Assembly (NCBI GenBank): GCA_024137785.1
Contig: JAHRHZ010000058.1
Span: forward strand, 33,151,646 to 33,215,645
DNA: 64,000 nucleotides
Reading direction: 5' to 3'
Origin: Ginglymostoma cirratum
Taxonomy: Eukaryota
The notes beneath the pieces were generated by a model, which was not told the origin of the DNA, did not search any database, and was given only the letters and a program-made list of their open reading frames with translations. A program made the position numbers and the translations under genes. Below, one piece after another: positions 19,040 to 63,303 of the stretch (position 1 is its first letter; every line of letters begins with the position of its first letter).

Positions 19040-19950
19040 AAAGACATTTATCAACCATTTCTACAATTTAAGGACAGTGGAGGTACTGAGGGAGGTAGCC
19101 GTGAGGTAAAGCTGGACGTCATTGGTGAACAGAGAAAAATTATTGCTGCATTTTTGGATGATACCAATATGGGCCAGGATGTGGATGAGAAATAGGAGGG
19201 TGGGAGGGAGATTAGATACTGGGCTGCTACCAGAGGTAATAACACAAGAGCAGGAATAGAAACCATTACAGGTGATTTTCTAGCTATGACTGTCCAAGAA
19301 GAATTGAACTGGGTGAGTGCAGTCTTTGCTAGAAAAAAGAGTAGAGGTGGTCGAGGGACTTATTGTAACCAACTGTGTCCATGACAAGTTAAGGAAGAAA
19401 GAAATAAAATTGTGATGTTTCATTGTTATTTCTCACAATTACAGGTGCTTTGCGGACAAGAATGTAGCTTTGAAGCACAGTCACTATTCTAATGTAATAT
19501 GAGCAATTTCTAATTTGTACTCAATAGTGAGCTCCCATAAAGAGCAATATGATAGTGGCCAGAAAATATATTTTTGTGCTGCCTTTTGAGGAAAAAATAT
19601 TGACCGGGGAACCAGGACTCGTCCTGAAAACAGTGGCTTGGGATCTTTTACATTGAGGGGGAGATGGGGCCTTGGTTTAACATCTCACACAAACATGGAG
19701 CTGTAGATAAGATGGACATGGACTTGTGGATAAGATGGACATGGATTTGTGGATAAGATGGACATGGAGTTGTGGATAAGATGGACATGGATTTGTAGAT
19801 AAGATGGACATGGAGTTGTGGATAAGATGGACATGGATTTGAGAGGTGTCAGCTTATTTAAAAGCTTGAGAAAGGAAAGGGAGTTTGGAGACAGAGCTGT
19901 AGTTTGTGAGGACAAACAGGTCAAGGGTTTTTGAGGAATGGTATGATACA
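19040..19950 (-). mobile_element. L2 RT fragments interrupted by a DeuSINE-like SINE (~19420-19690)
   Basis: Reverse strand ..DDVQLYLT.. near 19100-19125; Deu-domain-like TGAGATGTTAAACCAAGGCCCCATC at ~19663-19688. Confidence 0.6.
19694..19842. repeat. 23-bp tandem repeat, ~6.5 copies (ACATGGA.TTGTGGATAAGATGG)
   Basis: Near-perfect units are directly visible. Confidence 0.95.
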
Positions 19951-28350: not shown

Positions 28351-31300
28351 GAAAAAATTATTCATGTGTGATACGGATGACTGATTCAGGCCACTAAGCT
28401 GTGAAGGGAGATGCACCTATTTTTTATTTTCAACAAGGAAGATCATGTTTTTCACATTTTTAATATATTAAAAATATTAGGAGAAATGATCATTGTGAAT
28501 CACAGCAGATTACTTAGAGTAATAAGGACGATGAAAACAAAACTAAAATGAAATTAGCAAACTTTTAACAAGACCTGAAATCAAAAATATTTTTTTCTAC
28601 ATGGGAAATATGGAATGGAGACTTGGATTTTAATTCAGGGATGTTTTAGGGCAGATTGCTAGTGCAATCATTTCAAAATGCACCCATTGTCCTAACAGCT
28701 CAAGCCTCATTAGAATCTCATAGGCAAGTTTCCCATCTGATATCCTAACTTGACAGATAAAACCATCACCTCTGATCAATAATCAGATCAGCCAGCAATA
28801 ACTTTAAAAATAAAATGCTGTATGTCTATTAAAGTGAGATTGCATTGCCCTCTACTTTTTGAGGAAACTTTGTTTAACAATGAAGGAGAAATTCAGAGAT
28901 GGCAAGGGAAAGTTGTGTCTGGTTCCCTGAAGCCTACTTAAGATCACATTGAAGGAATTCAGGGTGAGGATCATGCACTGGCATGAGGCTTCTTAAACAT
29001 CATGAAGAGACATTACACAGAGTATCACCTTCAGTAATAACATCTCAGAATCTGTGACCAGGACAGGAAGTCTCTCAATGACTCTCAAAGTAATAAAGGT
29101 AAGTACACCCTTAACTTTATGGTAATAAGTCCTTAACATCTTCCTCACTACACTCAAAACTTCTCTTCCTCCCTTAATCATTCCACAGCATTAGGCCATA
29201 TTTTAATATTTCTCACTCTCATTAAATATATACACTTTCTTTTCCAAGCTCCCTTTGCAACACCCACTGGTACCATTCTATCCAGCAAACTACAACAATG
29301 TAGTACCATTCGGCTGGGCCATACTTTTGGGAGTCAGCAGAATTATTTCGGTGCCTGGATTATTGTTTCAGAATGCTAACTAGAAGGTCAACGATGTTTT
29401 TGATGGTGCCATGGTCTCATTGTATCTGTGTTGTTCCAACATAGTGAGTTTGCAAAGGAATGTCATCAAATAACTATAGAGGGGTATTTTTGTTCTCTAA
29501 TGTTGTAAATTTGGGTTTAAGTTCTTTCAAGTGAACATTAACCGGCTTTATTTGAACATAACTATGTACAAAGGTTATAGTAAAAGAGAACATCCTCTGG
29601 AACCCAAGAGATTCAGGCTTGACTATCATGTGATTTAATATCACTATGACTTAGCTCCTTCTGCACATTCTCAGTAGCTATTCCTAGAGTAAAGATATGA
29701 TTATCCCTTTGCTCCACATTTAGTGACCATCATGCTATGTATCTGGATAGATGGAAAAGTCAGATTTTCCCACCTTCATGTATGACAGAATGAAGGCATC
29801 ATTGGATGCTGTCCAAGAAACTGGCACAAACTTACATTAGCTTTTTGCGGTGACCATACCCCAGCCATGGTGGGAAAGACCTGTTTTGTTTATACACACT
29901 GCTGGCTACTCTTCTAGTGCCCTGATATTTACCAAAGTGCAGTCTATTGTGTCCTGTGTAAAATGGAACCAGGAGGTCTTTTGGCTCAGTAGACAGGTTC
30001 CCCAATTCTGAGCCAGAGCTCTAAGTTCAAGTCTCACTTCAGCCTGATCGATGATTCAAACCTCATTATGTGCCAAAGAAACTTTGAAAATCAGCCTGAT
30101 AATCACTTCCACACCACTCCCCAAATGTAAAATAAGTATATGTGACAATATCAAACAAAGTGATCCTGCAAATCCTAAAATAATTTCATTTGACTGTTGG
30201 TGACTATTGGAATGCCAATGTGGTGGTTTATGCAGGCAAGGTAGGCATTGGTGATGTTTGATGCACTCCAGGCTAGGAGAAGTGATGTTTTCTGTGATAG
30301 CCTAGTAGGAGCCTATGGCAAGTCATTCAAATGTGTTTATGACTTTGTCAGCCACTAATAAAATATAGCCCCCAACCCTTCAGTTCAATAGTGAATAGAT
30401 TATATATTGCTGCAGAAACGAACAAAGAGCATGATGGAGGAATTCAACAAGTCCAGTAGCACGCTTTGAGAGAGAAACAGAATTAACACTTCGAGAGATT
30501 TTTTTTTGGAACTGAAGGGGGTGGGAGACAATGATTTTTTTATGCTGTTGATGAGGGAGGGAGGAGGAGTGAGTGGAACAGATGGTGAGGGTGCTAAGAA
30601 TAAAAAACAAGGACCTCACTTGCTTGGTATGTGGGTCCTACTGGTTGACCAACATGCTCTTGTTAAAAGGTGTGTATGAGAGATTAGGACAAATGCAGCA
30701 AGTTAGATACTGCTAGTTCTGGTTTTAATATTGTCCCAACGTCAGGTACCCTGTTCTCATCTGGTAAGTAGTGTAATGTTGTTTGTTCTGACAGCCAGGG
30801 TGTTGGTGGAAAATACAGCATCATGGTGTAGACCATTCCATCTTAATGACAGTAAAAAGGAAAACCAAACAATACAAGGCAACTAGTAATGCAGCCACAC
30901 AATTGGCAGCAAGATATCTAGAACTTTCTATACTCTCACTCATCTGTTACAATAAAAAAAATTATCACAGTTGGTCTGAAAATTTATTTTGTATAAGGAT
31001 TAAATCTTGTATATCAGTAACCTCGTAAATAATATTCGCTAATCTAAAGATTGTAGTAGCATATCAATCCGCAGCAACCAGCCTAAGATTGACAGCCCAA
31101 CCATCACTGGTTGTTCAGTACTTTGTTTATTCCATCTGCCCGGAATTGGAATTCTCCTGCCCAGGAGACATTACTGCACGCATAAGCTCGCAAAACTCTT
31201 TGCCCTGGAGTTAAAATTCACATGATGAAAGGGAACTGTTGGCAATATCTACATTGTCTAAACATTACATTAATTTTACGCTCATTTATAGATTTTTTTA

Positions 31301-38852: not shown

Positions 38853-40067
38853 AGAACATCAGAACATAAGAACCAGGAGCAGGAGTAGGCCATCTGGCCC
38901 CTCGAACCTGCCCCGCCATTTAATAAGATCATGGCTGATCTTTTTGAGACTCAGCTCCACTTACCTGCCCACTCACCATAACCCTTAATTCCTTTACTCC
39001 TCAAAAATTTATCTAGCCTTGTCTTAAAAACATTCAGTGAGGTAGCTTCAACCGCTTCACTGGGGAGGTTATTCCACAGATTCACAACCCTTTGGATGAA
39101 GAAGTTCCTCCTGACCTCAGTCTGACATCTGCTTCCCCTTATTTTGAGGCGACGCCCTCTAGTCCTAGTTTCACCTGCTAGTGGAAACAACCTCCCTGCC
39201 TCCACCTTATCTATTCCCTTCATAATCCTTTATGTTTCTATAAGATCTCCCCTCATTCTTCTGAATTCCAATGAGTATAATCCCAGTCCACTCAGTCTCT
39301 CCTCATAATCCAACCCTCTCAACTCTGGAATCAACCGAGTGAATCTCCTCTGCACCCCCTCCAGTGCTAGTATATCTCTTCTCAAGTAAGGAGACCAAAC
39401 CTGCACACAGTACTCCAGCTGTGGCCTCACCAGGACCCTATACAGCTGCAGCATAGCCTCCCTGTTTTTAAACTCCATCCCCCGAGCAATGGCAGACAAA
39501 ATTCCATTTGCCTTTTTAATCACCTGCTGCACCTGCAATCCCACCTTCAGCGATTCATGCACAAGGACACCCAAGCCCCTCTGCACAGCAGCGTGCTGCA
39601 ATTTTTTACCATTTAAAACATAGTCCATTTTGCTGTTATTCCTACCAAAATGGATGACCTCACACCGATCAACATCGTACTCCATCTGCCTGACCTTTGC
39701 CCATTCACTTAGACTATCTATATCCCTCTGCAGACTTTCAGTGTCTTCTGCACACTTTGCTCTACCACTCATCTTAGTGTCATCTGCAAATTTTGACACA
39801 CCACACTTAGTCCCCAACTCCAAATCATCCATGTAAGTTGTAAACAATTGCGGTCCCAACACTGATCCCTGAGGCACACCACTAGCCACCGACTGCCAAC
39901 CAGAAAAACACCCATTTACGCCTACTCTTTGCTTTCTACTGGTCAGCCAATCCTCTATCCATGCCAATACATTACCTGTAATACCATGCAACTTTATCTT
40001 ATGTAGCAGCCTTTGGTGTGGCACCATGTCAAATGCCTTCTGGAAATCCAGATACACCATATCCACA

Positions 40068-40543
40068 ATAACAAGCATGGGGCTGGATGAACACAGCAGG
40101 TCAAGCAGCATCATAGGAGCAGGAAAACTTGACGTTTCGGGCCCAAACCCTTCATCAGAAATGGGGGAGGGGAAGAGGGTTCTGAAATAAATAGGGAGAG
40201 AGGGGGAGGCGGATAGAGGATGGATAGAGGAGAGGATAGGTGGAGAGGAGGCAGACAAGTCGAGGAGGTGGGGATGGAGCCAATATGAATATGATTTGCT
40301 GTTCCTGCAGCCTTCGGGTGGCATCACTGTGGCATTGCAGGAGGCCAAGGATGGACATGTCATCTGAGGAATGGGAGGGGGAGTTGAAATGGTTCGCGAC
40401 TGGGAGGTGCAGTTGTTTGTTGCGAACTGAGCGCAGGTGTTCTGCAAAGCGGTCCCCAAGCCTCCGCTTGGTTTCCCCGATGTAGAGGAAGCCACAACGG
40501 GTACAGCGGATGCAGTATACCACATTGGCAGATGTGTATCTCT
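40068..40543 (-). mobile_element. 5'-truncated Penelope-like element (family A): GIY-YIG endonuclease plus hammerhead tail
   Basis: NVVYCIRCTRCGFLYIGETKRRLGDRFAEH...PVANHF; perfect 17-bp TSD GATACACCATATCCACA (40051-40067 and 40544-40560). Confidence 0.93.
40131..40158 (-). ncRNA. Minimal hammerhead ribozyme motif (family A)
   Basis: CUGAUGA-A-GGGU(UUGG)GCCC-GAA-AC/GU-C, downstream of the GIY-YIG ORF on the sense strand. Confidence 0.75.
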
Positions 40544-41784
40544 GATACACCATATCCACAGGTTTGCCATTGTCCACCATGCAAGTAATGTCCTCAAAGA
40601 ATTCCACCAAATTAGTTAAACATGACCTACCCTTCATGGACCCATGCTGGTTGTTCCCAATGGGACAATTTATATTCAGATGTCTTGCTATTTCTTCCTT
40701 AATGATAGATTCAAGCATTTTCCCCACCACTGAAGTTAAGCTAACTGGCCTATAGTTACCTGCTTTTTGTCTACTTCCTTTTTTAAACAGTGGCATCACA
40801 TTGGCTGTTTTCCAATCTGTGGGATTTTCCAATCTGCCATCTGCAATCATTATGTTCTTATGAGCTTGCTATACTTCTACTGGTTAATCCTTCCACTATT
40901 CCCATCCATCTCTTCACTTCTTTCTCCTTATTCTCACTCCTTCTTCCCTCTTAAATTTATTTATCTCGCCCCTATTGTATCATTCCCATTTACATCGACT
41001 TTCCTCTTCTTTCACTTCTCCTCCTCTGTTCCTATACCCTTTCTCTCTTTTCCTCCTCATCATGTTCTTTTCCTTTACCTTTGCGGTCTCCTTCCCCAGG
41101 TTTTTCTCAAATTCCATACACTTGCACTTTCTCCTCCTTCTTTCTTTTCTTTTCTGGGCTTTTGTTTCTTTATGTCAACTTCACTTCTGTGACCAATCTT
41201 CTGTTTCCTTTCTACTTCACAAATCATCCACTTTAAACCCAAATAGTTTAAAAACTATATTGTATTTTCTCAATCCCCCTTGTGCAGTGCTATCAAAAGT
41301 TGACTGGTACATCTATAATTTCAGTGTGCAGGCACCTGTCGGCATTCCCTATGGATATTTTATGTAAATTGTGCCTGTTAGGTAATTCTAAGAGTTTCTT
41401 CTTCAGAGCACTCATTTTGTCTCAACATTCTTAGACACAAAAATTTCTATCTAGTTTTCTCTAAATGCTTAGTTTTAGTGTCCTTATACTTCCAAAATTA
41501 TTAGCTAATTCTGTACTAATCTGGATTTTCAAACTCACTTTCATAGATTGTTTACTCAGGTTAAGTTGGAGGTGAGTCTGTACTCTTTGGGTCCTGCTAA
41601 CAAATTGAAAGTTCAGTGTTTTTGACATTTCCAAAACCAAAGCTCAGTCCTTGCATCAAAAAAAATTTGGTCTACCAAATTTAATCGCATTTAAAGCATG
41701 TTCGTAGTCTTGAGATCCACACTATTAGAAGGATAGTGTAACTCTACAGAGGATACATTATAGATCAAAGTTTTTGAAACAATT

Positions 41785-42545
41785 TGTAGCTCAGGGCGTG
41801 GATGAAGTTGTAGACTTGCTCTCCGAGCCAGTGTGTTTGATTGCAGACGTTTCATCACCCTGCTCAGTAACATCGTCAGTGCGCCTCCGATAAAGTGTCG
41901 GTGTTCTGTTCCACTTGTTATTTATATGCCTCAGTATGCTGGGGTGGTTGGCATCACTTCTGGTTCTGTTGTACAGTGGTTTGTATATCGGATTCAGTTC
42001 ATGTGTTTGTTGATGGAGTTCCGGCTGGAATGCCAGACCTCCAGGAATTCCCTGGCATGTCTCTGTTTAGCTTGTGCTATTATACATGTGCTGTCCCAGT
42101 CAAATTTGTGTACTTCTTTGTCCGTGTGTACTAAGACCAGTGAGAACTGGTCGTGTCATTTAGTGGCTAGTTGGTATTCAAGTATCCTTATTGTCAGCTT
42201 TCTTCCACTTTGGCCTATGAAATGTTTCTCTCAGTCCCTGCATGGTATCTTGTATATTACGTTAGTTTTATTGGTTGTGGGTATGGGATCCTTTATGTTC
42301 ATCGCAGGGTTTTTGTTAGTTTTGTGGGTTACCCTGAAGCCTAGGGGTCTGTGGTCATCTCTGAAATATCTCTGTACAGTAGAGTGACTAGTATGTCTGG
42401 CCATGTTGTCTCGGCTTGTTGTGGTCTGTAGCGGAGGTAATAATGACATCCTTTGATGTAACAGGACTAGTTACATCCATAAACATCGACCTACCCAAAG
42501 AGACAATTGCCACACTGCTGGGCGAATCAGTAAGGCAGGCACCCC
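41785..42545 (-). mobile_element. PLE family D fragment (GIY-YIG on -) with an inverted RT piece at its 5' end (~42430-42545, +)
   Basis: KDPIPTTNKTNVIYKIPC on the minus strand; SFDVTGLVTSINIDL.KETI on the plus strand; hammerhead at 41846-41879. Confidence 0.85.
41841..41884 (-). ncRNA. Minimal hammerhead ribozyme motif (family D)
   Basis: GCA-CUGACGA-U-GUUAC(UGAGCAGG)GUGAU-GAA-AC/GU-C-UGC; stem I is GCA/UGC. Confidence 0.7.
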
Positions 42546-42925: not shown

Positions 42926-43414
42926 ATTGGGGATTTGATCTGTGCCTGTTGTCAAATGTTCAGCAGTAAGAAAGCCTGATACGATAGAGGGGAAAGTAGA
43001 GATCCAAACTTTTTTCTATTAAATCAACAAATTTAAGGAGAGAATATTGGCCTCAGAGTTAATTACAAACACCTACAAGTTGTTGCAAATCTATGGTTTT
43101 ATAAAATGATTATGTTTTGAACTGTCTCTTTAAAATCAAGGCAAAATGATCTAATAGTGAGTGACTTGCAATGTCCTGCTACTTCTTCCTGGTAATAAAT
43201 CAAGCTGGCCTGGTTGCTGCAGAAATGCAGAATCCTAGATCATTTATCATTGACATGCAGGTACAAAGTTTAACACACGAAAAACAAAGAACAGAGTATC
43301 TGGCTTCACCATGGGTGAACTTACAGACTGTCAGACCGTCTGATTAAAAGCACTTTGGGGTCAGACAGAGAAAGACAAAGGAAGAATCAGCAGCCATTGC
43401 TAGCAGCAGGTCAA

Positions 43415-45898
43415 CCAGGTGGACCTTGGGGATTGTTGTTTGACGTGGGTTAACATCCTCAATCAGGAAGCCCTGACTGACCAATATAAAACAGGTAATT
43501 CAGAATCACCTCAGTTCAGAGAACTGAAACCTTTCGGAATCCAGCGAGACCCAGCTCACTGTAGAGGACGGCATATTACTTTGGGAGCAAGAGTGATTGT
43601 CCTGGAGTAAAGGTCACTGCCAGATACTGGCTGAACTCCACCAGGGTCATCCAGGGGTTTCCAAGATGACGATGCTGGCAAGAAGTTATGTCTGGTAGTC
43701 AGGGTTGGATGCTGACATACCTGTGTGGGTGGGGCAGTACCCAGGGTGCCAACAAGTACAAACATGGCCACCAGCACACCCCCACCCCCCAACATTCATG
43801 GGAATGGATTGGTCAATCCTGGACTCATTCACATGTCAACTATGCTGATCCCCTCGTGGGCTCAATGTTGCTAGTCCTGGCGTACACCTATTCAAAGTGG
43901 TTGGACATGCATAAAGTCTGATCGGTAAACTTGGGGAATGACAATTGTGAGGCTGTGAGCATCATTTGCAATACACGGTCTCCTGGAAGTATTGGTCATG
44001 GACAATGGGATGTCATTTACCAACAAGGAATTTGAATATTTCCTTAAGTCAAATGGTATTCAGTACTTAAGGACAGCTCCATACCATCCTTCATCCAATG
44101 GTCAAGTGGAAAGAGTGGCCTAAACATTGAAGGCAGCCTTAAAGAAGCAGCCTACGGTGTCACTCAATACTAAACTGTCTCGGTTCCTGTTCGATGATAG
44201 GACCACCCCTCACACAACAACAGGGATAGCTCCAGCAGAGTTGCTGATGGGGAGAAGACTCAGCACCAGGTTAAACCTGATATTTCCAGACCTGGGATGG
44301 GGGGTTGGCGTGAAACAGCAGCAGGACTGTCATTGCCGGCCACATGCCTCCTCTGAAGCAAGAGAAAGAGACAATTTAATTCGGGGACAAAGTTTGGTGC
44401 TGGACACATGGAAATGGCCCTGTATGGGTACAAAGTTCGGGCAGGTGAGGCAGTCTTGAACAAATGTGGATCACATGAAAGCCGTTACTTTGCAAACAGT
44501 ACAGGAACAAAATATACCTAGTTCCTCAGGTCATCTGGCTGCTCTCTCAGAAACTGAGAGTCCTCCCAGCCTCTGTTTTAGTGTCAAGGAGACTTCAGAA
44601 TCCAAGATGGATGCAATCTCAATACCTTTTCTGCCAGAAGAAGAGGCAGAAACCGTCCCAAGATGCTCCAGACAGAAGAGACAGGCTACTGTCGAGTACA
44701 CAGTGCTCGTGTCAAAGTCCAAATCAGAGGAACAGGATATGGGGTAAAAACATCACAGAAAAAACTGCAAGACCAAACCTCCATCCCCAGACTTAGTGGC
44801 ATCAGTGGGGGTGGGGGAATGATGTGGACCTTGTGGACTACAAAAGGTCCTTGCTTGGGATTGTTAACCCAGGTCAGTCAGGACCCCCTGGCCAACCAGT
44901 GTAAACGGGAGATTTTATCAATAAAGCTATTTCCACTTCTGGTGTTTTTACTGTTTCTCACACCTACAAAAAATTAACTAGGAGATGAGAATCGCCTTAG
45001 TTCAAGTGACTGACCAAAAAAAAATATGAACGGGGATTGTTCAAGCCTGAGTGCAGAGGGAGCACGTATTATCCACCAACACTCGCGCTGCCTTTAGGGA
45101 GAGGTGGGCACCACAAGGGTGAGCCCTTTATCTTGCCCTTCCAATTCTATATTGATTTGATCCCTACCTTCCCCTTCACGTTTTCTTTCACATAAGCAAA
45201 GCTCGGTAGGAGCAATGTTTTTTATTGGTCCATTGGCCATATGGGTGTCTTTCCTGGTGGTGGAAAGGTTGAATAAAGTTGTTTTACACGTGGTGTTTTT
45301 ACTGACTCCTACACCTACACACACACACGCACACACAAGTGCAGTGGGTAAAAACTAAGCACTACCTCTGTATGGCAGCAGGTGTAGGGGTACTTTTAAA
45401 AGAAATAAAGTAACCAGGAGGAAAGGGTGTCCATGGAGAAGGAGCACACCGTGTCCACCAAAATTCTTGCTGCCTTTAGGGAGAGGTGGATACCGTGGGG
45501 GTAGAGTGTTTTATTTCCCTTTTCGATTCTGTTTTGATTTAGTTCTTACCTTTCATTCACTTGTTTCCCCCTTCATTTACTGCCCTTACTGGAGTTCTGC
45601 TTGTCACAGGTTCCTTGGCCCATGGGTGTTTTTCCTGGTGTTAGAATGTTAATGAAACTGATGTTTCTCGTTGTGTCTTGCACCTACACACAACATGGGT
45701 GTTGGGAAAGACAGGCACTGCTGCTGTACTGCTGTAGTGTAGGGTATTTAAAACAAAAACAAAATATAAACAGGGGATTTAGAATCTCCTCTGTTCAGCA
45801 GACTGACTCTGAGCTGGCTGGTCACAGCCAGTGTACTGTGCACAAGTAAATAAAGGGTGATTTGATGATGGGAGAATAGCCTCTGTGCAGTTATTTCA
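43415..45898 (+). mobile_element. Internally deleted Gypsy LTR retrotransposon: 5' LTR ~43415-43650, integrase remnant ~43790-44295, PPT ~44804-44819, 3' LTR 44820-45898 (interrupted)
   Basis: W..SW.H.HV.YA.P..GSM.LV....YSKW, DNG..FT..EF..FL..NGI, TAPYHPSSNG..ER and RTTPHTTTG.APAELLMGR motifs; purine tract followed by TG...AATAAA...TTTCA. Confidence 0.85.
44917..45762 (+). mobile_element. Tandem 3' ends of an L1-clade (Tx1-like) non-LTR element inside the Gypsy 3' LTR
   Basis: Two ORF2 C-termini, REHVLSTNTRAAFRERWAPQG* (~45057-45122) and RVSMEKEHTVSTKILAAFRERWIPWG* (~45424-45504), each followed by a related 3' UTR and A-rich end; a third, UTR-only piece at ~44917-44973. Confidence 0.65.
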
Positions 45899-45939
45899 CA
45901 GGAGAACAATGTTCTCTGCCACCATACGATTTTGAGGCT

Positions 45940-47430
45940 TCTTCACAGTGTAGATAAGGAGAGGATATTTCTTCTGATGGGAGAATATAGAACTAGGGGC
46001 CACTGTCTAACAATTAGTAGTCATCCATTTAGAAGAGATTTATTTTCTTTCAGACAGTTGTAAATCTTTGAAACTCTCTTCCCGGAAAGGTATTCGTAGC
46101 AAGGTCCTTGTATTTAAGGTTTTTGCAAAGACCTGTAGCGAGGGTTGTGGGTGAGGTGTTAACTTGCTCACTGAGCTGGCTTGTTCTTGTTAAGACATTT
46201 CATCACCATGCTACGTAACATCATCAGTGAGGCCTCCAATTGAAGCAATTATGCTTCACTCCGCTTGGAATTTACATTGTCCGCTCTGTTATGGTGTTGG
46301 TTCAGATGTTTCATCACCATCCTAGGTATTCACCAGAGAAGAAGAAAGCAACAATCAGCTTCTGTTTCTGGATGTCAGAGTTGAATGTACAACCAACAGG
46401 ATGTTCCAGACCTTGGTATACAATGTTTGGAAAGCAATCCACACGGACCAAATCCTCAACTTTCACAGCAACCTCCCCAATGCCCACAAACAAAGCTGTG
46501 TTAGGACTCTATTTAAACAGGCCACCACTCACTGCAACATGCCAGAACTATGCAGAAAAGAGGAAGAGCACCTATACAAAACCTTCACTATAAACCGATA
46601 TCCCCGCAACTTCATCTGTAGATGCCTACTAAATAGCCAACAACAAGAGGACACAATACACCCTAACACACTGGCCACACTCCCCTACAGCAAGAACATA
46701 TCAGAACTGACTAGACTCCTAAGACTACCAAGAATCATGGTGGCCCACAAGCCCACAGTCAATCACAAACAGACACAAAGATTAGACAACCCATTCCCAC
46801 AACATGCAGAACCAACGTAGTGTACAAAATACCATGCAACGACTGCCACAAACATTACATTGGACAGACAGGAAGGAAACTAGCCATCAGAATACCCGAA
46901 CATCAGATAGCAGCAAAACGACACAATGAACTTTCCTTTATATTGGTACACTCAGACAATGAAAGTCATCAGTTTAACTGGGACAAGGTAACCATAGTAG
47001 CCCGAGTGAAACATAGACATGCACAGGATTTCCTAGAGGCATGGTTCTCCACCCATACTTCAATCAACAAACGTATAGAATTGTACCCATATATAAACCC
47101 ATACAGATCAAAACCGGAAATGACAGTACTTACTGTAACAGACCGGACAGTATAAATTCCAAGTGGAGTAGAATAACATCATTTCATGGGAGACTCTAGT
47201 GATGATGTTACCTAGCATGGTGACGAAATGTCTAAACGAAAACAAGCCAGCTCGGCGAGCAAGTCAACAACATCAAGGTCCTGTACATTTTTAAGGAGGT
47301 GGTTAACAGGTTTTTGTCAAGCTTAGGTTATCAGGGCTAGACATAAATATGAATTTGATGCTAACAATCATCTCCACTTGAATGACAGAGCAGGCTTGAG
47401 GTGCTGAATGGCATATTCCTGCTCCTTATT
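45940..47430 (+). mobile_element. CR1 3' fragment split by a PLE
   Basis: CR1 end motifs at 45940-46120 resume at 47275-47430. Confidence 0.7.
46135..47273 (+). mobile_element. PLE family D: RT C-terminus, GIY-YIG and tail, with an inverted pseudo-LTR at the 5' end
   Basis: FLDV.V, KAIHTDQILNFHSN and VYKIPCNDC.KHYIGQTGRKL..R..EH motifs; 46160-46235 is the inverse of ~47190-47270; approximate TSD CAAGGTCCT(T)GTA. Confidence 0.92.
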
Positions 47431-52873: not shown

Positions 52874-53627
52874 CCATCTTGTTCTCATACTAACATTTCT
52901 GTCCTGGGCTTGTTGCATTGTCCCAAGAAAGCACAAGACATGCTTGAGGAACAACACTTTTTTGTTCATGATGGTCAACTGTTGGTTAGGCCAGCATTTA
53001 TTGACCATTGCTAAATACCCAGAGGATAGTTAAGAATCAACCACATTCCGGGGGTCCGAGGTCACTTGCAGGCCAGACCAGGTAAGAATGGCAGACTTTC
53101 TTCCCAATATGGCATTAGTAAATCCGATACAACAATTGACAGTGGTTACATGGTTGCAATTAGTTAGCTCCTTAACTCCAAAAAGATAGCAAGAACTGCA
53201 GATGCTGGAGCCTATAGCCCGATGGCCCAAATATGGAATTCACCAGCTTTAAAATCTCCCCACCCCTGGCCTCATCCCATGTCCGACTTTCCCTCCTTGA
53301 CCTAACACAACCTGTCCATGATAACAAGCATGGGGCTGGATGAACACAGCAGGTCAAGCAGCATCATAGGAGCTCGGATTTACTAATGCCTTATTGGGAA
53401 GAAAGTCTGCCATTCTTACCTGGTCTGGCCTGCAAGTGACCTCGGACCCCCGGAATGTGGTTGATTCTTAACTATCCTCTGGGTATTTAGCAATGGTCAA
53501 TAAATGCTGGCCTAACCATCAGTTGACCATCATGAACAAAAAAGTGCTGTTCCTCAAGCTTGTCTTGTGCTTTCTTGGGACAATGCAACAAACGCAGGAC
53601 AGAAATGTTAGTATGAGAACAAGATGG
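52874..53627. repeat. 254-bp inverted repeat (52874-53127 and 53374-53627)
   Basis: Arms are reverse complements with only about six substitutions. Confidence 0.95.
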
Positions 53628-60061: not shown

Positions 60062-60824
60062 TAACAAGGTGTGGAGCTGGATGAACACAGCAGGCCAAGC
60101 AATATCATAGGAGCAGGAAAGCTTGACGTTTCGGGCCTCGACCCTTCATCAGAAATGGGGGAGGGGAAGAGGGTTCTGAAATAAATAGGGAGAGAGGGGG
60201 AGGTGGATAGAGGATGGATAGAGGAGAGGATAGGTGGAGAGGAGGCAGACAAGTCGAAGAGGCGGGAATGGAGCCAGTAAAGGTGAGTGTAGGTGGGGGG
60301 GTAGGGAGGNNNNNNNNNNNNNNNNNNNNNNNNNNNNNNNNNNNNNNNNNNNNNNNNNNNNNNNNNNNNNNNNNNNNNNNNNNNNNNNNNNNNNNNNNNN
60401 NNNNNNNNNNNNNNNNNNNNNNNNNNNNNNNNNNNNNNNNNNNNNNNNNNNNNNNNNNNNNNNNNNNNNNNNNNNNNNNNNNNNNNNNNNNNNNNNNNNN
60501 NNNNNNNNNNNNNNNNNNNNNNNNNNNNNNNNNNNNNNNNNNNNNNNNNNNNNNNNNNNNNNNNNNNNNNNNNNNNNNNNNNNNNNNNNNNNNNNNNNNN
60601 NNNNNNNNNNNNNNNNNNNNNNNNNNNNNNNNNNNNNNNNNNNNNNNNNNNNNNNNNNNNNNNNNNNNNNNNNNNNNNNNNNNNNNNNNNNNNNNNNNNN
60701 NNNNNNNNNGGCCCGAAACGTCAAGCTTTCCTGCTCCTATGATATTGCTTGGCCTGCTGTGTTCATCCAGCTCCACACCTTGTTATCTCGGATTCTCCAG
60801 TATCTGCAGTACCTTTTATATCTC
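60062..60824. mobile_element. Young PLE family A with inverted termini spanning an assembly gap
   Basis: Minus-sense tail at 60062-60309 (hammerhead 60125-60152), plus-sense tail at 60710-60824; TSD ATGTATAGCT (60049-60058 and 60828-60837). Confidence 0.85.
60310..60709. other. Assembly gap (400 N)
   Basis: Run of n characters. Confidence 1.
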
Positions 60825-60924: not shown

Positions 60925-62390
60925 TCAGAGTCATAGGGTTACACAGCATGGAAACAGACCCTTCGGTCCAACTCATACATGCCAATCAGATATCCTAAAT
61001 TAATCTAGAACCATTTGCCAGCATTTGGCCCATATCCGTCTAAACACTTCCTATTTAAGTACCCATCCAGATGCCTTCTAAATATTGTAATTTTACTTGC
61101 TTCTGACACTTCCTCTGGCAGCTCGTTCTATCCATGCGTCTGAGTGAAAAAGTTACACCTCCAGTTCCTTTCAAGTCTTTCCTGTCTCACCTGAAACCTT
61201 TGCCCTCTAGTTTTGGACTCACCTACCCTGGAAAAGACCTTGGCTGTTCACCACATCCATGTCCTTCATGATTTTATAAACTCCTACGAAGGTCATACTT
61301 CAGGCTCCAACATTTCAGGGAATAAAGCCCCAGCCTAATTAGCCTGTTCATGTCGCTCAAACCCTCCAGTCCTGGCAACATCTTTGTAAATCTTTTCTGA
61401 ACCTTATGAAGTTTAACAACATCTTTCCTCTTGCAGAGAGACCAGAACTGAATGTAATATTTCAAATGTGGCCAAACCAATACCTATACAGATATAAAAT
61501 GACATCCTAACCCCTATACTCGATACACTGATCAATTACAGCCAAACATACCAGACACCTTCTTCACCACCCTGTCTACCTGCTACTCCACTTTCAAGGA
61601 ACCAAGCACCTGCACCCTTGGATCCCTTGGTTCAGCGACACTCTCCAGGGTCCTACCATTAACTGTATAAATCCTGCCCTAAATTGCCTTACCAAAATGC
61701 GACACTTCACATTTATCTAAATTAAACTCCATCTGTCACATCTCGGCCCATTCGTCCATCTGGTCAAGGCCCCATTGCACTCAGAGATAACCTTCTAAGC
61801 TGGTCACTATTTCAATGTTGGTGTCATCTGCAAACTATATAAATGACAAAGAGCAGTGGACCCACCATTGATCCTTGTGACACATTGCTGGTCACAGGCC
61901 TCCAGTCCAACAAAACAAACCTCCACCACAACTCTCTGTCTTCTACCTTCAAGCCAATTTTTTATCCAATTGGCCAGCTCCCACTGAATTTAACCTTGTC
62001 AATCAGTCTACCATGTAGAACCTTGTTGAAGGCCTTGATGATGTCCATATAGACAACGTCTACTGCTTTGCCTTCATCTACCTTCTTTTGACACTTCTTC
62101 AAAAACCTCAAGCAAGTTAATGAGACACAATTTCCCATGCACAAAACCATATTGACTCTCCCTAATCAGTCCTTGTCTTTCCAAATTCACACAAATCCTG
62201 TCCTTCAGAATCCCTTCGAGTAATTTACCCACCACCAGTCTATCGTTCCCTGTATTTCTTTACCACCTTTGTTAAATAATCACACCACTTTAGCCAACTT
62301 CCAGTCCTCTGGCACCTCACTTGTGGCTATTGATGATATAAATACCTCAGCAAGGGACACAACAATCTCTTCCCTAGCTTCCCACAATCA
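60925..62390 (-). mobile_element. CR1 LINE fragment with internal deletions
   Basis: VDEGKAVDVVYMD..KAF.KV.HGRL and RLGLYSL motifs; CAGAGTCATAG tail. Confidence 0.9.
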
Positions 62391-63303
62391 CCGTGACACT
62401 TTTATTTGTTTTTAAACTATTCACAGATGGATTTTCTGTAGCCAGTCTCTTCCCTCAGGGTTGGGACCTGGTTCTTGCACCACCATTAAGGGGAGTCAAA
62501 CTGCCTGCTGCCCATGCATAACCAGGGTTATGGTAATATACAAGGTCTCCCCGGTGCATATGGCCTATCTAGCTTTGGAGTCTTTCAAGGTTAAAGGCAA
62601 GATGGCCCATTGGATTTACCTAAAGGTTTGCTCCCCATGAGACCACTTTGGGAGCAGTTCACATTTTGCCTGTTTCAGTAACCTTGTCTGTGGTGAACTC
62701 TATGACCACAAAAGTGGAATGGATGTTCTACTCCTCACTGGATTATGGAGCAACTTCCCATCCAGTTCTGGAACCTTGCAGCCTCTGACTCCAATGCACT
62801 TCCTTGGCAGTCAAACGGAGCCACAAGTGTTGTCGCTGGGAACTTTTCTGAGCTGTCTGGAGGTAGCCCATTGCCGAGGACAGTATTGTTCATGGACCCC
62901 TGAAAGTCCTGATCCCCTTCTGCATTTTCACAAAAAAAAGGCCAGTACCGTGGCTTTCCTTTAAGTCCAGATTTGCTTCAGTGATTAATTTCCTTTGGGT
63001 CACAACATTGTTAATGCTACAAATTAAGCAATGCCTTAACATTTCCCAAAGTGTTGACCCTTGCTCAGTGTTCTGCCAATTTCCAGCCTCATCAAGACTT
63101 CAGTTACTGGTTCCTCAGGAAGTCTATTTGCTGTGTTAAACTTTTAATGCTGCAATATAAACAGATAGATAGCAGACCGCTCTGATACCAAACTATCTGT
63201 TTGTCAAAAATAATTTTGGGGCTGCAGGTGGGTTAAACTCTTTATTATGCTGGAAGTTGAGACGACACAAATGGTCAGATAAATGACTTATTGTCAGTGA
63301 TAC

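Follow-up and report, generated by a model that had tools for sequence, protein, structure and literature searches.

Stacked 5′-truncated retroelement ends at the TATA-like motif of a Gypsy LTR in Ginglymostoma cirratum: possible repeated insertion by a site-preferring LINE

The host element and its LTRs

The window analysed here, 64,000 nucleotides of contig JAHRHZ010000058.1 of Ginglymostoma cirratum (GCA_024137785.1, positions 33,151,646 to 33,215,645 of the forward strand), is repeat-rich DNA of vertebrate type with RT remnants and GIY-YIG-like remnants; all coordinates below are those of the window. Among its contents are the remains of an LTR retrotransposon whose 3′ LTR is interrupted by an insert. 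At the upstream end lies an LTR piece, U (43419-43527, plus strand), that is about 110 nt long and covers about half of the LTR. It carries an unbroken copy of the motif at which the 3′ LTR is split, hereafter the target (43483-43500), with TATAAA at 43485. U is joined directly at about 43527 to integrase-region coding sequence, with no PBS, gag, protease or RT after it, and because so short a piece runs straight into integrase coding, the internal part of the element is deleted.

What follows U is the decayed 3′ part of a Gypsy pol (43528-44750, plus strand), with the zinc-binding and core domains of integrase, several stops and frameshifts, and then a C-terminal tail. Its Pfam matches, Integrase_H2C2 (E 7e-4) and rve (E 7e-6), are both under the curated cut-offs; a pol profile search of the integrase region gave matches down to E 4e-53, and a protein search with the integrase returned 104 candidates, of which 47 were homologs; the long ones have PR-RT-RH-INT domains. 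As relatives of this integrase belong to a pol that also includes protease, RT and RNase H, the host can be assigned by homology to the Gypsy LTR retrotransposons. Its top named matches are catshark K02A2.6-like proteins, to which the integrase is 66-67% identical; the copy here differs from K02A2.6-like Gypsy elements in being internally deleted and decayed. Two other readings of the upstream end were rejected, that U is itself pol sequence, since it aligns as DNA to both LTR arms, and that U is preceded by RNase H, since the pol profile has no match at 43300-43460. A second and more decayed Gypsy remnant is present at 62319-63290 (minus strand), where the N-terminal third of the pol profile matches with E 2e-6 to 5e-4; no LTR like U was found near it.

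A polypurine tract (44805-44819, plus strand) stands directly 5′ of the 3′ LTR. The left arm of that LTR (44820-44897, plus strand) starts with TG, and its end, next to the target, is formed by an imperfect inverted repeat (44872-44896); the right arm (45780-45900, plus strand) has AATAAA at 45849 and a CA end at 45900 that was placed by eye. A further inverted repeat, 45769-45795, overlaps the 3′ half of the target. The target is flanked by these two imperfect inverted repeats, with boundaries picked by eye. With these by-eye boundaries the short flanking hairpins have z of -2.4 to -2.7 in four of five pieces; whole-piece folds of the UTR and LTR were no better than those of shuffled sequence (z -0.1 to -1.5). 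By arithmetic, removal of the insert would leave an LTR of about 216 nt, in which TATAAA stands at 45765, AATAAA 84 nt further on and the CA end about 50 nt beyond that. Promoter followed by polyadenylation signal is the usual order in an LTR, and because the order of TATAAA, AATAAA and CA agrees with it, the label ‘TATA-like’ for the target motif seems reasonable.

The hallmarks of a Gypsy element are accordingly present: a polypurine tract, an LTR bounded by TG and CA (the latter by eye), and a U that is homologous to both arms of the 3′ LTR. The original prediction had taken U as a 5′ LTR with an uninterrupted motif. Its target is indeed unbroken, and U is no more than likely to be the cognate 5′ LTR of the same Gypsy insertion, because no 4-5 bp Gypsy target-site duplication (TSD) is visible; inspection by eye found no matching flanks, and the first bases of U are eroded.

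Several other retroelement remnants and repeats occur in the window. Just past the LTR end, 45922-46110 (plus strand) may be a 3′ remnant of a CR1-type RT, which it resembles. It is followed at 46231-47155 (plus strand) by a Penelope-like remnant with overlapping frames and a weak GIY-YIG match (E 0.047), and an apparent second one, judged from an antisense ORF only, is at about 41700-42400 on the minus strand. RT-bearing ORFs at 39230-40868 (minus strand; Pfam RVT_1, E 2e-16) are broken by a stretch with a GIY-YIG-like motif, which suggests one retroelement nested in another. A 254-nt inverted repeat (52874-53127 and 53374-53627; 98%, arms 246 nt apart), whose spacer ends in a repeat that recurs at 40054, 57701 and 60048, may have formed by inverted duplication of flanking sequence when a retroelement inserted, or may reflect an error of assembly. 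An assembly gap of 400 Ns (60310-60709) is flanked by a perfect 76-nt inverted repeat (60062-60137 and 60710-60785), and a 23-nt tandem array of about 6.5 copies (92%) is found at 19670-19853.

The split and the duplicated target

The 3′ LTR is interrupted at the TATA-like motif by about 0.85 kb of inserted sequence, and a 17-18 nt target is duplicated there. U aligns with the left arm over 44824-44914 (61/78 identical; score 47, best of 300 shuffles 29) and with the right arm over 45763-45806 (36/44; score 51, best of 300 shuffles 35), and it is because these two significant alignments overlap on U by 17-18 nt, at 43483-43500, that both the break and the duplication can be read from them. The break at this motif was part of the original prediction, and all four of the motifs it listed were found at their positions. 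The left TSD copy, T1 (44898-44914, plus strand), has a decayed TATA-like hexamer and the right copy, T5 (45763-45779, plus strand), retains TATAAA at 45765; the two are identical at 13 of 17 positions and all four mismatches are G/A. Between them the order is unit A, a target copy T2 with part of the LTR right arm, a C residue and nine As, a target copy T3, unit B, a target copy T4 and unit C.

Unit A (44916-44969), unit B (45039-45404) and unit C (45424-45762), all on the plus strand, are three same-strand pieces of one repeat, as comparison of their sequences confirms. B consists of about 27 codons of an ORF end, a 3′ UTR with a (CA)n stretch and an A-rich tail. C has 26 codons of the ORF end of B, the 3′ UTR and an A-rich tail, and the part common to both comprises about 22 codons plus the UTR. 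A is a piece of 3′ UTR only with a short A run, without the ORF end and without the last 80 nt or so of the UTR of B and C. B and C are identical in 243 of 332 aligned columns (score 196, best shuffle 39), and A and B in 38 of 48 (score 51, best shuffle 30); A compared directly with C scores 29, under the best shuffle of 34. The nhmmer match of unit A has E 0.0012. Two diverged ORF ends and a third UTR piece in the same orientation, as had been proposed, are therefore what the locus holds. In both B and C a stop follows the G codon, also as described earlier, and in both another frame reaches aligned stops about 13 codons further on, so that either could be the true end of the ORF. Across the window nhmmer finds three matches to the repeat with E<0.01, all at this locus; the next, with E 1.2 to the ORF end of B and C (30790-30842, minus strand), is probably due to chance and was not accepted as a fourth copy. 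No longer copy of the repeat was found within the window. All pieces at the locus are dead fossils.

A target-like copy follows every unit of this one locus, strong after C, moderate after A and weak after B. T2 is extended by about 28 nt more of the LTR right arm, giving 45 nt in all (44970-45014, plus strand) that match the right arm at 38 of 48 positions (score 46, best of 300 shuffles 29). The C residue and the run of nine As that lead into T3 occupy, with T3, 45015-45038 (plus strand), and the 11 nt that immediately precede the target in U are matched as well by 45007-45017. The weak copy T4 separates B from C (45405-45423, plus strand) and ranks in the top 1% of plain 22-mers. Against 1058 A-rich background 32-mers, the share scoring equally well or better is 0.1% for T3, 3% for T2 and 6% for T4. 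The internal motif of the original prediction (45007-45038) is present, and its description can be refined, as 44970-45014 is a second target copy with LTR right arm that was missed earlier.

The inner LTR piece ends at GACTGAC, a 7-nt sequence that the LTR carries to either side of the target, and it stops about 40 nt before the position of the AATAAA of the LTR. Because it stops so far short of that signal, duplication or recombination at GACTGAC would fit somewhat better than read-through. Whichever origin the extra piece has, unit A sits at a second copy of the target. Elsewhere in the window, at 2545-2735, four copies of GACTGAC with spacings of 46, 92 and 46 nt suggest a degenerate 46-nt tandem array, one that TRF did not report.

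Identity of the repeat

The units have the hallmarks of retrotransposition, namely a 17-18 nt TSD, A-rich tails and starts inside the ORF or the UTR. Together the TSD, the tails and the 5′ truncation speak for target-primed retrotransposition, and they are general LINE features rather than specific ones of Tx1. The motif at the ORF end of B and C presumably resembles the ends of Tx1 ORF2, and this had been the ground for assigning the repeat to Tx1. The searches lent that assignment no support: neither Pfam nor four protein searches found a true relative of the ORF end of about 25 amino acids, and these are weak negatives, with queries of only 25-40 residues. There was no Pfam family; word-indexed protein searches gave none of 1 and none of 466 candidates at E<=10; the ESM Atlas had no match; and three matches from a profile search of 1.84 billion representatives, all to tandem-repeat proteins, were rejected as artefacts. 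The same short queries likewise yielded no protein match in support of LINE ORF2 identity. The fragments contain no RT, only the last 26 or so codons of the ORF being present. The repeat is probably a LINE of Tx1 type, an unconfirmed assignment.

A SINE headed by an RNA gene, of the SINEU or tRNA type, was also considered. An Rfam scan of 43000-46500 gave a single match, whose 14.7 bits fall short of the gathering score of 80, and so no credible small-RNA head. Neither the element nor the LTR target had an exact-pattern match in bacterial and archaeal genomes, which is expected and uninformative, and a full-text literature search with the peptide motif of the ORF end gave nothing relevant.

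Origin of the stack

That a LINE with a preference for this site inserted at least twice, splitting the old Gypsy 3′ LTR at its TATA-like motif with three 5′-truncated ends, has in our judgment a slightly better than even chance of being correct. A bottom-strand nick by the endonuclease immediately before the AATATAAAC sequence would expose a T-rich 3′ end that primes target-primed reverse transcription on the A tail of the RNA, and after a further nick some 17 nt downstream the target would be left duplicated. Each insertion would regenerate an intact target, and so later copies could pile up there, all oriented alike. The 45 nt of LTR that follow A would be a second copy of the target that was also hit. 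Duplication or recombination using the GACTGAC microhomology could have produced it, as could read-through out of a source element lodged in a different LTR. In a full-length copy the TATA of the LTR would lie about 10 nt 5′ of the insert, and AATAAA downstream. Transcription starts 25-30 nt after a TATA box, so with this spacing the start would fall just inside the 5′ end of the insert, and borrowing of the promoter by a full-length insert is a possible, if speculative, consequence.

Repeated insertion is favored because each unit has an A-rich tail at its end and a target-like copy beyond it, with the TSD given in addition by the alignment overlap, and because A is followed by target plus LTR, 45 nt that score above all 300 shuffles. 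It is also favored because an LTR preference of Tx1 elements and tandem copies round a 16-nt TSD have precedent (PMC4494074). The unit starts point the same way. The 5′ end of A is wholly different from those of B and C, and B and C are dissimilar in the 20 nt that separate the target anchor from the body they share: their score of -15 is under all 274 overlapping windows of the body (minimum -14), and 84% of 3000 random pairs score equally well or better, a test biased by selection as the junction segment is the part outside the local alignment. Long exact runs between B and C are also mildly in excess, the longest, of 21 nt, being reached in 2% of 400 neutral simulations and the top four runs in 4%, in simulations run without CpG effects. 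What weakens repeated insertion is the weakness of T4 (6%), the confinement of the evidence to a single locus, a window-variance test that was not significant (19% of simulations), and the proximity of the B and C starts, which are about 10 nt apart in element coordinates (29 and 28 nt from the anchor to the shared codon) and which would not be expected of independent random truncation; a parent of fixed length could give such starts, as could duplication.

That proximity is one of the points in favor of a single insertion followed by local multiplication and neutral decay, with no targeting at the level of the family, to which we assign a tentative, clearly lesser probability. B and C would then derive from unequal crossing-over between the TSD copies, and A with its LTR piece from a second exchange at GACTGAC. 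The inner LTR piece does end exactly at the 7-nt repeat found on both sides of the target, and the differences between the B and C ORFs are spread neutrally over the codon positions (5/6/6 over 22 codons), with no sign of purifying selection. The divergence of B and C is moreover comparable to that of the LTR pair, their identity of 243/332 being not significantly lower than 97/122 (Fisher p 0.18), and if the parent ORF continued further, the stop that both have at the same codon would count as a defect in common. Against this, the B and C junctions resemble each other no more than random sequences do, so that two offsetting indels are needed, A needs two further deletions, of about 225 nt on its 5′ side and about 80 nt on its 3′ side, and long exact runs are in mild excess. 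A different possibility is that a LINE with a loose, L1-like preference for T/A-rich junctions hit this TATA-like, A-rich site by chance, and that the A tails and the regenerated site drew later copies with no preference for the LTR family. The target does begin with an A/T-rich run, and short T-A junctions are nicked by L1-type nucleases (PMC1950540). Yet no further significant copy of the repeat turned up in the 64 kb (three matches with E<0.01, all here), which makes three chance hits unlikely, and the same downstream 17 nt recur after the tails; we consider this the least probable of the explanations.

Repeated insertion by a site-preferring LINE also admits a bolder version, which we think improbable as a whole. 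A Tx1-type LINE of cartilaginous fish, or a non-autonomous derivative of about 350 nt with a fixed 5′ end, would recognize the TATA between two inverted repeats of the Gypsy LTR, duplicate it, borrow the promoter and polyadenylation signal of the LTR, and disable the LTR in doing so. The 45-nt piece would then stem from read-through, the source copy occupying the same base in a different LTR.

If targeting were confirmed genome-wide, an example of shark type would join the few LINEs known to have other retrotransposons as their targets, and a target defined to the base, the TATA-like box of a Gypsy LTR, would be available for studying change of specificity in Tx1 endonucleases and promoter borrowing. 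The general phenomenon is already known in crocodilians, and the locus is a decayed fossil, so its interest is chiefly for transposon specialists.

Comparison with known systems

Dewa elements target the spacers of tRNA genes. The targets of Keno, Kibi and Koshi are U2 snRNA genes and microsatellites (PMC4494074). The locus described here would share with these elements the target preference of the Tx1 clade and differs in that the Rfam scan found no credible RNA gene round the site. Xenopus Tx1L targets the DNA transposon Tx1D by means of a sequence-specific APE endonuclease (PMC1950540 and PMC4494074). The likeness would be that of a LINE directed at another transposon; its target is a DNA transposon whereas that here is a Gypsy LTR, and its specificity was established biochemically whereas that here is deduced from one locus.

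Novelty was implied in the original prediction and is in part forestalled, as LTR-preferring Tx1 elements and TSD-flanked tandem stacking are in print (PMC4494074). What stands is that no shark case and no TATA-site case was met among the titles and opening lines of abstracts in the open literature, which disclosed no TATA-targeting Tx1 and no LTR-targeting Tx1 in sharks. The crocodilian elements Tx1-8_Crp and Tx1-4_AMi, of the Tx1-Mar group, prefer LTR retrotransposons (Kojima 2015, PMC4494074). This preference would be the likeness to the present case, whose TATA site may or may not be a target of theirs too, and the difference is in the hosts, crocodilians there and a cartilaginous fish here. 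Tandem copies of SINEU-3 often sandwich a TSD, of 16 nt, and transcription from the flanking transposon was raised as a possibility (PMC4494074). SINEU-3 has a DNA-transposon target, Mariner-N4_AMi, and snRNA heads, in contrast to the units here with their ORF-like starts and no RNA-gene head. The arrangement of SINEU-3 and Tx1-Mar in Mariner-N4_AMi, tandem insertions at the same site round a TSD (PMC4494074), is nonetheless like that found here, and on our analysis the locus would appear to behave as a stack of a Tx1-type, transposon-targeting LINE, a real and well-formed fossil.
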